From a virus (lineage: Duplodnaviria; Caudoviricetes): a DNA stretch of 45,394 nucleotides. The stretch covers positions 1 to 45,394 of IMG/VR virus record IMGVR_UViG_3300043036_000147; one strand, given 5' to 3'. Shown in pieces: positions 6,265 through 41,699 of this stretch; position 1 is the first letter of the stretch, and each line of letters opens with the position of its first letter. The position numbers and the translations under genes are program-made. The notes beneath the pieces were generated by a model. The model saw only the letters and a program-made list of their open reading frames with translations, had not been told where the DNA came from and did no database searches.

Positions 6265-6300
6265 TTGGTGTATTGGTGTTTGGTGTTGGTGTTGCGGGTG

Positions 6301-6371
6301 TTGATTATCCGCGAAGCCCGAAAGGGCTTTTCGTCCCGTAATCGGCGGGACTCATCAGGCGGTTTATTCAA
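6301..6371 (-). ncRNA. Type I hammerhead ribozyme
   Basis: Minus strand reads CCGC-CUGAUGA-GUCCCG(CCGAUUA)CGGGAC-GAAA-AGCCC(UUUC)GGGCU-UC-GCGG. The catalytic core is complete and stems I-III pair perfectly. Stem I extends via UUGA/UCAA past an internal loop. Predicted cleavage 3' of C at 6313. Confidence 0.92.
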
Positions 6372-34453: not shown

Positions 34454-34471
34454 TCCACACCACACCAACAC

Positions 34472-34903
34472 ATGCTACTCGAATCAAAAACCACTCACAA
34501 GAAAGCCCCTGCTGCTATCCCAGACAGCGGCTCACGCACCAACTTCGACACTGGCGCAGTGCGTGATTCATCTATCGGCAAGGGACTGCCAAGTCGTATC
34601 CCGCCGATTGCCATCATGAAGATGGCGAAGCGCTTTGAGGATGGTGCCAATAAGTATCCCGATGGACAGAGCGGTCCAAACTGGATGATCGGCATTCCGC
34701 TGTCTCGCTTCTACGACGCCATTGTGCGCCACTCTTTGCAGGCCGCAGAAGGCAACACGGACGAGGACCACATTGGCGCTGTCCTGTGGAACGCTGCGGC
34801 GTGGGCCTGGACCGAAGGCGAGATCGTGGCCGGTCGCCTGCCAATCGAATTGAACGACCTGCCATTCCACCCAAGTGGCACCGTGGCCCGTCATCGCAAG
34901 TAA
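34472..34903 (+). CDS. dATP/dGTP diphosphohydrolase domain protein (DUF5664-like)
   Basis: FDTGAVRD...GKG...GANKY...NWMIGIP...RH...EDHIGAVLWN. Confidence 0.82.
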   Translation: MLLESKTTHKKAPAAIPDSGSRTNFDTGAVRDSSIGKGLPSRIPPIAIMKMAKRFEDGANKYPDGQSGPNWMIGIPLSRFYDAIVRHSLQAAEGNTDEDHIGAVLWNAAAWAWTEGEIVAGRLPIELNDLPFHPSGTVARHRK

Positions 34904-37642: not shown

Positions 37643-37696
37643 TTCATCACTCAAAACACTCCAACCACACGGAGTCAACACAACACAACACACATC

Positions 37697-38554: not shown

Positions 38555-38638
38555 TATCGACACCCACAATCACCGAGGGGCGGCGGTTTTTACCGCCCCA
38601 AACCACACACACAACACACCAACACCGCAATACCTAGT

Positions 38639-39406
38639 ATGAACTCACTCTTCAATCCATCCTCCGGCGCTGACAGCACCAAAGAACTCCTCCCTGACGG
38701 CACCTTGGCATTTGCCGTTGTCAGCATGTCCGACAAAGGACTCGCCAACAGTCAATCCACGGGTGGCGAATACGCCAACCTCGTCATCACTCTTGATGGC
38801 CCAGCACCCATCGGCAAGCGCAAGGTCTTCCACATGCTCGCCAACCCACTCGACACTGACAACAGTGAAGCGTGGCGCAAGATGGCGATCAGCGCAATCA
38901 CTCGCATCCTGGAAGCCTGCGGCACCTTCGATTACGAGTCCCCAGATTCCTACAAAATCTTCGACTTTGAAGGTGTCAGCTTCAGCCACATGCTGGAGCA
39001 CATCGAAGGCCAAAGCATTGCTGTCGAAGTCGGCATTCAAAAAGGGCAGGATGGCCACTCCGACAAGAACGTCATCAAGACGTTCCTCACTCCCTCCCAG
39101 GAGAAGAGCAGTAAGCGTGGTCGTCAGCTTTGGGACCTTCTCATGACCGGCGCAACCACGTCGAAGGTCGAGAAGAAGGTGGTGCCCGCTGCCGCCGCAC
39201 CTGCCGTCACGCCGAAGCCAGCCTCTGGCCCAGCCGCAATGGCGAAAGCCTCAGTTGGAGTCGGTGGCGGCATCGGTGGTGCCAAGCCTTCCGGTGGCAT
39301 TGGTGCCCCCAAGTGGGCCAATCGCCCTGCCACGCCAGTGGCCGCCAAGCCTGAGGCTGCGGCTGCTGAAGCGGTCCAGGAGCAGGTGATGCAGGGCGGC
39401 GAATAG
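38639..39406 (+). CDS. ssDNA-binding protein (DUF669-like)
   Basis: OB-fold-like N-terminus (LLPDGT...KRKVF...DKNVIK) and low-complexity tail with PKWA; follows the Sak4-like gene. Confidence 0.7.
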   Translation: MNSLFNPSSGADSTKELLPDGTLAFAVVSMSDKGLANSQSTGGEYANLVITLDGPAPIGKRKVFHMLANPLDTDNSEAWRKMAISAITRILEACGTFDYESPDSYKIFDFEGVSFSHMLEHIEGQSIAVEVGIQKGQDGHSDKNVIKTFLTPSQEKSSKRGRQLWDLLMTGATTSKVEKKVVPAAAAPAVTPKPASGPAAMAKASVGVGGGIGGAKPSGGIGAPKWANRPATPVAAKPEAAAAEAVQEQVMQGGE

Positions 39407-39413
39407 CCTTCAG

Positions 39414-39554
39414 CCCCTGGCAATGCGTCAATTCCGATTACCACACCAATTCGGGTTTGCCACAGCGTTGCCAGGGGATTAAATTTCAACGTATCCAGTG
39501 CGTAGGGAAATGTGTTGGTGTGGAAAAGTGTGATCCCTGCGCACTGGATTTTTT
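39414..39554 (+). ncRNA. Candidate structured sRNA: two long hairpins with complementary (kissing) loops
   Basis: Stem 1 39414-39426/39465-39477 (13 bp); stem 2 39493-39508/39534-39549 (16 bp); loop CCACACCAA (39441-39449) pairs with TTGGTGTGG (39515-39523). Confidence 0.65.
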
Positions 39555-39626
39555 GTTGCGGTTCGTATAGAGGAAGTATTCCAGACCGATTTACTGGAGG
39601 CGCGGGTTCGATTCCTGCACTGCAAC
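39555..39626 (+). tRNA. tRNA-like element with a non-canonical anticodon arm (nominal anticodon GAU)
   Basis: Acceptor TTGCGGT/ACTGCAA, D arm GTAT-AGAGGAA-GTAT, anticodon stem CCAG/CTGG with A:A at 31:39 and loop CCGATTT, T arm GCGGG-TTCGATT-CCTGC; no encoded CCA. Confidence 0.7.
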
Positions 39627-39641
39627 AACCTTCCCAACAAC

Positions 39642-39685
39642 ACCCCCGACGCCTCTGACTCAAGCGCACCACGGGGGTTTCTTTT
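39642..39685 (+). terminator. Hairpin with U-rich tail after the tRNA-like element
   Basis: ACCCCCG/CGGGGGT outer stem followed by TTCTTTT. Confidence 0.45.
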
Positions 39686-39705
39686 GCCCGCACGCCAACA
39701 CCATT

Positions 39706-41370
39706 ATGCAACTACGTCCACGTCAAGACATCTTCGTCCGCGCCAATCTCAAGGCGCTTAAGCAGCACAAAAACACCCTCGGCCAAGCCACCGTTGGCTT
39801 CGGCAAAACCATCTGCATCGGTGCCGGTATCGGCATGATTGGTGGCTACCAGCGCAGCCTCACTCTCCAGCACCGCGAGGAGCTGCTGGACCAGAACCTC
39901 ACCAAATTCAAGCGGGTCAACCCTGGCTACCTCACCGCAGCGATGAGCGCGGATGTCAAACGGTGGACACCAGAGGGCCACAACTTCGCGATGGTTCAGA
40001 CCCTGGTGAAGAACCTGGATCGCATGACGCCGGTGGACATCCTGACCATTGACGAGGGTCACCACGCACCGGCCTCGACCTACCGCAAGATCATCGACCG
40101 AGCCCGTGAGCTGAACCCAGACGTCCACCTGTGGCTGCTCACCGCAACGCCTGAGCGTGCTGACGGCAAGGGCTTGCGCGAGGTCGTGGACAATGTGGCC
40201 GACGTCGTGACGCTCGGCGAGATGGTGCAAGCCGGGTTTCTGGTGCGACCACGCACGGTGGTCATCGACCTTGGCATCAACGCGTCATCCATGCGCAAGA
40301 CGACGGCGGACTTCGACATGGACTATGCAGCGCAACTCCTGGACTTGGAGCCAATCACCGAGAAGGTCTTCGAGGAGTGGAAGAAGCAGGCCGGTGATCG
40401 TCGCACGGTGGGCTTTGCCACGAACGTCGAGCACTCCATGCACATGACCGACTACTTCGTGAAGCGTGGCATCACCGCAGAGCACATTGACGGCGAAACA
40501 CCCAAGGATGTTCGGCGCAAAATCCTACAGCGCCTGGATCGTGGCATCACCCAGGTGGTGTGGAACTGCAATGTTCTCACCGAGGGCTTCGACAGCCCGA
40601 GTGTTTCCGCCATCATCCTGCATCGACCATTCATGCACTTGAGCACGATGGTGCAGATGGCCGGTCGAGGGCTACGCACGATCAGTGAGCCGGAGAACTA
40701 CCCAGGCATCATCAAGGACGACTGCATCATCTTCGACTTCGGCGCATCCATCATGGAGCACCGCACGTTGGAGAGCGAATGCAACATTGAAGGGCGCAAG
40801 AAAGGCGGTGAAGCGCCCACCAAGGAGTGCGAGGAATGCGGTGCCGTGATACCTGCAAGCTGCCGCGTGTGCCCGATCTGTCAGCACGCCTTCGAGTTTG
40901 ACGCAAAGCTGAAGACGGCGACCGGAGAGTTCATGATGACCGAGGTGGAACTCATGCAGATGTCGCCTTTTCACTGGGAGACGCTGTGGTCATCGCCCGA
41001 CCCAAACGTCGTGATGGCCAACGCTCTCACCGCATGGTGCTGCCTAATCGAATATGGTGGCATCTGGTTCGCGTATGGTGGCATCCAGGGCAAGAGGGAC
41101 ATCAAGCTGTGCGGCACCAGCCACGACAAAATTCTGGCGATGGTCAAGGCGGACGATTTCCTGCGTGAGCACGGTGACAAGAGCAACAGCCGCAAGTCGC
41201 GATCCTGGTTGACCGATGACGCCAGTGACAAGCAATACGAACTGCTAGGAGAGAAGCCTCCCATCTTTGGGCGCATGTCCAAGTATCGCGCTGCCTGCAT
41301 GATTTCCTGGAAGTGGAACGAGAGCAAAATGCAACAAAGTATTTTTGCGAACTTCAAGAATTTCCGTTGA
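39706..41370 (+). CDS. SF2 (DExH) helicase with Zn finger, RadD/UvsW-like
   Basis: LRPRQ Q-motif, TVGFGKT, DEGHH, LTATP, LTEGFD, QMAGRGLR and CxxC...CxxC. Confidence 0.92.
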   Translation: MQLRPRQDIFVRANLKALKQHKNTLGQATVGFGKTICIGAGIGMIGGYQRSLTLQHREELLDQNLTKFKRVNPGYLTAAMSADVKRWTPEGHNFAMVQTLVKNLDRMTPVDILTIDEGHHAPASTYRKIIDRARELNPDVHLWLLTATPERADGKGLREVVDNVADVVTLGEMVQAGFLVRPRTVVIDLGINASSMRKTTADFDMDYAAQLLDLEPITEKVFEEWKKQAGDRRTVGFATNVEHSMHMTDYFVKRGITAEHIDGETPKDVRRKILQRLDRGITQVVWNCNVLTEGFDSPSVSAIILHRPFMHLSTMVQMAGRGLRTISEPENYPGIIKDDCIIFDFGASIMEHRTLESECNIEGRKKGGEAPTKECEECGAVIPASCRVCPICQHAFEFDAKLKTATGEFMMTEVELMQMSPFHWETLWSSPDPNVVMANALTAWCCLIEYGGIWFAYGGIQGKRDIKLCGTSHDKILAMVKADDFLREHGDKSNSRKSRSWLTDDASDKQYELLGEKPPIFGRMSKYRAACMISWKWNESKMQQSIFANFKNFR

Positions 41371-41441
41371 CTGAATGCCTTTAAGCGGTATCACGCATCG
41401 CCCTATGGCAACCACACACACCCACACCACCACAGTCACAC

Positions 41442-41699
41442 ATGCACTCGCGCACCTCATCCAAGGAACAGCCGCCAGCAAATAGCAAGAAGTCCATCAA
41501 AGTTGCCATTGCAGAAGCCAGCAATGTCAAGATGACGGAGATCACACTTGACCAGTATCACCAACTCCTGCGCAACACCATCCGGCTGGATGCCCTGGAG
41601 CGCAACGGAGTCGAAGGATGGAGCGGTTACGATGCCGCTTTTGACAGCGTCTATGACGACGCATGTATTGAAAAACTGCCAGTGAAATTTCTCGACTGA
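41442..41699 (+). CDS. Hypothetical protein
   Basis: LDALERNGVEGWSGYD motif; CA-rich leader. Confidence 0.65.
   Translation: MHSRTSSKEQPPANSKKSIKVAIAEASNVKMTEITLDQYHQLLRNTIRLDALERNGVEGWSGYDAAFDSVYDDACIEKLPVKFLD

Follow-up and report, generated by a model that had tools for sequence, protein, structure and literature searches.

The window analysed here, the whole 45,394-nt stretch of IMG/VR virus record IMGVR_UViG_3300043036_000147 (Duplodnaviria; Caudoviricetes), is the complete, circular genome of a phage and carries a terminal repeat of 127 nt. Between its gene for a protein resembling single-stranded DNA-binding proteins (SSB) and a helicase gene lies a cassette (39414-39685) composed of two hairpins, a U run, a tRNA-like cloverleaf and a final hairpin. 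This cassette is very likely a real, conserved structured RNA of the + strand, since the differences found between strains retain its stems, either via G-U or with both partners of a pair changed. Judging from its complementarity to gene starts, the second hairpin is probably the body of a trans-acting antisense RNA of the C4 and CI kind, which would pair with the leaders of several early genes and repress them jointly.

The predicted folding of each hairpin was compared with 200 shuffles. Neither hairpin 1 (z -6.4) nor hairpin 2 (z -4.9) was equalled by any of them (0/200 each), and the + strand of the cassette folded better than its shuffles (z -3.2), the - strand barely so (z -1.3). A previous reading, made from the sequence only, had described the two hairpins, the complement between their loops, the U run, the cloverleaf and the final hairpin. 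Every one of these elements is present in the sequence, although hairpin 3 folds weakly (39642-39678; z -1.4, 22/200 shuffles as good). An assignment of hairpin 3 to abiF RNA (RF03085) was rejected, its score being 24.2 bits against a cut-off of 37.

Strain variation was followed over 39250-39850 in contigs from eight of 24 listed runs, most of the close strains being from runs whose label is freshwater or lake. Coverage of the region is incomplete in some runs, and the figures refer to the differences listed. Within 39407-39705 there are 32 changed places. Fifteen distinct stem-pair changes were counted, 11 of which retain pairing: in three both partners changed (in hairpin 2 from U-A to C-G, in the anticodon stem from A-U to C-G and from A.A to G-C), and eight are one-sided, passing via G-U on the + strand, with one acceptor-stem G-U repaired in two different ways. 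In hairpin 2 pairing is retained in all changes (one two-sided, four one-sided). Two stem-pair changes disrupt one outer U-G of hairpin 1, a pair broken in 5/8 runs, while two apparent breaks in run X18 re-pair once its deletion and insertion are counted (hand reading). No change fell in hairpin 3. A DNA cruciform or origin was rejected as an explanation: the strands fold alike as DNA, yet the strain changes pass via G-U on the + strand only.

Loop 2 was scanned against both strands of the whole genome, and its G/U-rich core was then compared with 42 leaders, using 1000 shuffled cores as control. The best non-self partner genome-wide is the start region of open reading frame (ORF) 34472 (+ strand), which encodes a dATP/dGTP diphosphohydrolase domain. 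Three of the top six sites lie no more than 25 nt upstream of a start codon, the SSB and helicase leaders are within these six, and loop 1 stands far down the ranking. The four leaders that score highest with the core are those of ORF 34472, SSB, the helicase and ORF 41442; shuffled cores matched the best score in 1/1000 cases and the mean of the top four in 2/1000. Predicted pairing energies with loop 2 were -24.7 kcal/mol for the ORF 34472 start region, -18.6 for the SSB leader, -18.2 for the helicase leader and -16.3 for loop 1, and the target sites are predicted to be open (0-1.8 kcal/mol). There were 58 sites with a 7-nt seed. The 45 nt before each of 43 starts hold 15 of them, where a uniform distribution would give 1.35; the shuffled-core test is the fairer control, because the uniform expectation disregards leader composition. 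One such seed precedes the major capsid gene, and the target set is therefore not purely early. The helicase-leader site is constant among the strain differences, and deletions of 1 and 3 nt occur in the spacer between it and the AUG. Throughout the genome the majority of leaders are C/A-rich, and a Shine-Dalgarno (SD)-type word was found in only 2/42 listed. ORF 41442-41699, whose own leader is among the top loop 2 targets, has a T7 gp5.9-like RecBCD inhibitor domain.

The loop of hairpin 1 holds a copy of the target word (39441-39450), which can form nine Watson-Crick pairs and one G-U with 39514-39523 of loop 2. When both loops were shuffled at fixed composition, a 9-bp complement was reached in 450/100,000 trials (P 0.0045). 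None of the 32 changed places falls among the 20 kissing nucleotides, and hence there is no covariation signal between the loops. From this pairing of two open loops, to which their constancy among strains may be added, the sequence-only reading proposed a structural kissing-loop pseudoknot RNA, or one that oligomerises hand in hand like the packaging RNA (pRNA) of phi29. In phi29 pRNA two complementary loops join molecules into rings; the two loops here are complementary. Rfam gave no pRNA match at E 10, and the packaging context is not of the phi29 type: the locus lies in the replication module, ~26 kb away from the genes for the small and large terminase subunits (7.7-13.1 kb). The leaders out-compete loop 1 by predicted energy, and relatives carry other folds. 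A structural role of this kind is thus highly improbable. The structured non-coding RNA that had been proposed is borne out by the stem-preserving strain changes; the pseudoknot as its function is not, since leaders outbid loop 1, and the pRNA-like oligomer finds no support.

The same pairings could belong to a cis-only switch on the SSB-helicase mRNA, in which loop 2 would pair with loop 1 or the helicase leader, or the kiss would tune termination at hairpin 2 and its U run, so that only the helicase would be controlled. Loop 1 and the helicase leader do share one transcript, and the predicted fold of 39492-39730 joins loop 2 to that leader. Hairpin 2 also ends in six U, and a long hairpin follows SSB in most relatives, often with a U run. 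However, the best site (14 bp) is 5 kb upstream, other sites are on the opposite strand, and the matches in relatives are to leaders that lie beyond the slot between the two genes, namely those of Sak4, SSB and primase. We regard such a switch as unlikely.

The cloverleaf downstream of hairpin 2 was called tRNA-Ile(GAU) by ARAGORN and scores 35.3 bits with the Rfam tRNA model RF00005 (cut-off 29), so that the earlier statement that no known family is recognised has to be withdrawn for this part. Elsewhere in the window Rfam gave nothing above cut-off; a search at E up to 10 returned nine weak matches, with abiF and SpF41 under their own cut-offs. The element shares with tRNA the cloverleaf, the T loop and a score above cut-off, and differs from it in the 8-bp acceptor and in an anticodon loop that is non-canonical and unconserved. 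Where a decoding tRNA has U33, a purine at 37, a closed 5-bp anticodon stem and a constant 7-nt loop and anticodon, this element has C33, U37 and an A31.A39 mismatch, and its loop differs between strains. Among runs X15, X18 and X20, deletions of 1 and 2 nt occur at 39588 and bases are replaced at 39590 and 39592, so that one base is lost in X18 and two in X20 and the sequence also varies. In X15 and X20, D-loop G39572 to A and T-loop C39609 (C56) to U occur jointly, a candidate elbow covariation that is probably a single event. Because of C33, U37 and an anticodon loop that varies in length while the stems stay paired, the behaviour of the cloverleaf is that of a tRNA mimic for processing, not that of a decoder, with the tRNA shape rather than the anticodon apparently under selection. 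A CCA end can be added post-transcriptionally.

A tRNA-Ile gene, ordinary or in decay, that stands between hairpins of terminator type, with the loop matches as a by-product of C/A-rich leaders, would account for the ARAGORN and Rfam calls and for the genome-wide composition of the leaders. It fits poorly with C33, U37 and anticodon-loop indels accompanied by compensated stems, and composition-matched shuffles seldom reach the observed matches, which leaves it improbable. No tRNA was found in the SSB-helicase slot of 60 helicase loci.

The ends of the proposed RNA can be predicted from the layout of the cassette. A candidate sigma70-type promoter within the 3' arm of hairpin 1 would place +1 at ~39492-39493, at the foot of hairpin 2; one such site was found against 0.2 in shuffles. 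The A/U-rich linker between the hairpins could equally be a nuclease site. Because a promoter-like site or this linker separates them, hairpins 1 and 2 need not share a mature RNA, and either route to a 5' end near 39492 would leave hairpin 1 behind. The 3' end is likely made by RNase P at the tRNA mimic, by analogy with known tRNA-like elements: a cut at 39555/39556 would release a free hairpin of ~62 nt with a U tail. Its loop would then bind the open, C/A-rich and mostly SD-less leaders of ORF 34472, SSB, the helicase and ORF 41442, and more weakly those of Sak4 and ORF 6264. Binding would lower initiation and provide negative feedback on the replication module. Loop 1, as an upstream copy of the target, may mask loop 2 in read-through SSB mRNA, or may be bound in trans like seqA of phage P4.

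Table. Positions of the cassette elements, flanking genes and predicted loop 2 targets in the window
Feature	Position	Strand	Description
Hairpin 1	39414..39477	+	13-bp outer stem (one U-G), 13-nt loop
Candidate sigma70-type promoter	39457..39485	+	9/12 match, 17-bp spacer, in hairpin 1 3' arm; weak
Hairpin 2, proposed antisense RNA body	39493..39549	+	16-bp stem (one U-G), 25-nt loop 39509-39533
G/U-rich anti-leader core of loop 2	39510..39523	+	predicted opening cost 1.5 kcal/mol; complementary to leaders
U run	39549..39554	+	either 3' tail left by RNase P cleavage or terminator tail
tRNA-like element	39555..39627	+	8-bp acceptor, normal T loop, C33, U37, A31.A39 mismatch, CCA not encoded
Hairpin 3 with U-rich tail	39642..39685	+	possible precursor terminator; weak
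Best target, ORF 34472	34460..34473	+	14 Watson-Crick pairs across leader and AU of AUG
SSB leader target site	38615..38625	+	11 bp
Helicase leader target site	39691..39701	+	11 bp, one G-U
ORF 41442 (gp5.9-like) leader target site	41422..41443	+	bulged duplex
Sak4 leader, weaker target	37676..37696	+	three 7-nt seeds
ORF 6264 leader	6265..6292	-	four 7-10-nt seeds
SSB-like gene	38639..39406	+	255 aa; upstream neighbour, likely target
Superfamily II helicase	39706..41370	+	Pfam ResIII and Helicase_C; phrog_16

The genome consists of a block of terminase, capsid and tail genes and an early module, the latter including the diphosphohydrolase-domain ORF 34472, a phosphoesterase, Sak4, the SSB-like gene, the helicase, a Cas4-like exonuclease and an AAA primase. 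The product of the SSB-like gene has no Pfam or PHROG match itself; its homologues P0009 and P0013 match phrog_378, 'single strand DNA binding protein' (E 2.7e-5 and 4.1e-6). No integrase or repressor was recognised among the 41 ORFs scanned, many of which are unannotated. At 6307-6363 (- strand), ~45 nt upstream of ORF 6264, a sequence resembling a type I hammerhead ribozyme has the full core and all three stems; it scores 20.3 bits with Rfam Hammerhead_1, under the cut-off of 34.

Relative loci were gathered via SSB and helicase alignments, the SSB proteins being ~29-45% identical. In these relatives the SSB-helicase slot is filled with other RNA folds, not with the cassette of the window, and no double kissing hairpin was seen. 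The match between slot RNA and leaders was scored on hand-picked representatives: of 36, 31 had a spacer of at least 60 nt and a Sak4 leader, and setting aside three of SD type left 28 (two spacers were trimmed by hand). The spacer RNA of these 28 non-SD loci matched its own Sak4 leader over a mean of 6.93 nt and foreign leaders over 6.07 nt (P 5e-5, 20,000 permutations), a P value that overstates the support because the loci are related. In 19/28 loci the match to the own leader reached at least 7 nt. The matching words are lineage-specific and recur before Sak4, a 140-146-aa ORF, the exonuclease, the primase, SSB or the helicase. Like the window with its loop 1, 4/16 relatives (hand-chosen sites) have a copy of the target, at least 7 nt long, upstream.

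Two groups of folds could be distinguished in the slot. Type A stands before the helicase in six sequences (L307:9930-9998, L051:10728-10802, L068:4200-4277, L080:752-828, L239 and L251:9897-9978) and combines a GAGA-type hairpin with anti-AUG bases in a loop or strand; two-sided changes affect 6/9 predicted pairs, and the members scanned had no Rfam match. Type B, with two G/U loops, comprises 11 sequences (L060, L070, L081, L085, L090, L253, L254, L258, L259, L268 and L066), in which RNAalifold recovers the second hairpin only (8/12 pairs two-sided). Its loops match ACCGAC-type and CCCAAC-type words ahead of starts. The layout of type B, with its two G/U loops, is similar to that of C4 RNA, but three records tested gave no RF01695 match. 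More generally, Rfam gave no match at cut-off in 20 relative loci and, with E up to 2 allowed, two chance matches among 12 loci. In L001:2843-2985 and L002:3597-3720, two hairpins with G/U-rich loops come after SSB, and the start codon that comes next lies at C/A tracts. Another phage that shares the loop word (L217:350-470, L219:1501-1620, + strand) has a C/A leader with AUG, a hairpin with a complementary G/U loop and more C/A leaders.

Relatives with SD-type leaders (L301, L274, L260, L255 and L273) seem to be without an anti-leader RNA in the slot, and the three that were scored reach only 5 nt. This distribution would also suit a translation activator, a phage-made adaptor acting on SD-less leaders, whose tRNA-like domain would stay attached and engage the ribosome or a host factor; most of the sites lie 5-25 nt upstream of AUG, the usual place of an SD sequence. 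Nevertheless, the best duplex spans the AU of an AUG, anti-AUG bases are frequent in the loops of relatives, and a tRNA elbow, if intact, would attract RNase P. There is little chance that the RNA works in this way.

The proposed repressor, which would work in the manner of C4 and P4 CI, shares features with several described RNAs. The passages of PMC5320573 that concern C4, the antisense RNA of phages P1 and P7, describe loop sequences that pair over ribosome-binding regions and a connection with RNase P. The likeness lies in a phage RNA with a loop complementary to ribosome-binding regions of its own mRNAs. However, C4 (RF01695) has three stems with loops a' and b', in place of one hairpin with one large loop; RNase P makes its 5' end, whereas here the cut, at a separate tRNA mimic, would create the 3' end; and several replication genes are the apparent targets here. 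The RF01695 covariance model matched none of five records (the genome itself and four relatives) at E up to 10. The CI RNA of satellite phage P4, in the account given in part of PMC4825925, is processed, has complementary sites upstream and downstream (seqA, seqC) and restrains replication genes. Complementary sites also flank the RNA here (39441-39450 upstream, 39691-39701 downstream), but CI acts by transcription termination in lysogeny, and the sites in the window stand at start codons across the early region. For the 3' end, the sections of PMC4919922 on MALAT1/mascRNA and MEN-beta/menRNA report that a downstream tRNA-like structure is cut by RNase P and the 3' end of the non-coding RNA is thus formed. 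A similar arrangement may exist here, with a tRNA-like structure downstream of a putative non-coding RNA; those are mammalian nuclear RNAs, in contrast to a phage hairpin of ~62 nt with a predicted cleavage.

GcvB is a chromosomal, Hfq-dependent small RNA that uses an unstructured G/U-rich seed on C/A-rich translational enhancers of many mRNAs. The G/U-rich seed against C/A-rich leaders is a likeness to the present RNA; no sequence or Rfam relationship was seen.

Several observations weigh against a trans-acting antisense RNA. The constancy of the loops among the strain differences listed has a chance of ~0.1 by rough estimate. The SSB site stops 13 nt short of the SSB AUG, and repression is preferred over activation only from the overlap with start regions. 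Hairpin 2 with its six U could be a plain terminator. The promoter match is 9/12, with nine such sites per 12 kb against 5.1 expected, and it is not enriched in relatives (4/35 against 1.9 expected); a family-wide conserved sigma70 promoter is accordingly unsupported. Among the 28 loci, which are related, in part near-identical and hand-picked, nine match their own Sak4 leader by 6 nt or less. The cassette itself was seen in close strains only, no homologue having been found in 408 other loci (nhmmer best E 0.39). It was not shown by an IMG/VR pattern scan in 121 loci sampled from ~2600 stretches, of which L108 alone was read by eye and is unrelated, nor was it among the matches listed in scans for the exact loop pair (25 loci) and for loop plus T arm (21 loci). 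A collection of named phages gave no DNA match longer than 22 bp and no SSB match. No description of the element was found in the literature, a search outside which fall the supplements of PMC10690425 and PMC2864571, where such folds could be listed; the supplement of PMC10690425, as described in part of that paper, holds 10,006 viral candidate RNAs.

On the other side stand the leader preference of loop 2, the strain changes that keep its stem and the loop-leader matches of relatives, and an antisense repressor remains the reading that we favour. Tentatively, it may be extended to a wider picture that is possible but still doubtful. Freshwater podoviruses whose leaders lack SD words could form a widespread family that runs its replication module through an RNA slot located between SSB and helicase. 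The slot would be exchangeable, with at least four unrelated folds as occupants, whose loops would have co-evolved with the leader words of each lineage. In the lineage of the window, a captured tRNA body would serve as a mascRNA-style tag and the upstream decoy loop as an on/off latch, giving phages without recognised lysogeny genes an RNA regulon with multiple targets.

An RNA of ~62 nt with predicted targets and a predicted cut site can be tested in vitro without a known host. A caution follows for annotation, since calls by both ARAGORN and Rfam do not prevent a phage 'tRNA' from being a processing tag, and, if the proposal is true, this would be a phage case of 3'-end maturation by a tRNA mimic. 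The phage antisense RNAs compared here, C4 and CI, belong to the immunity regions of temperate phages; in this phage one RNA may co-ordinate a whole replication module and would do so via leader words common to genes without SD sequences.
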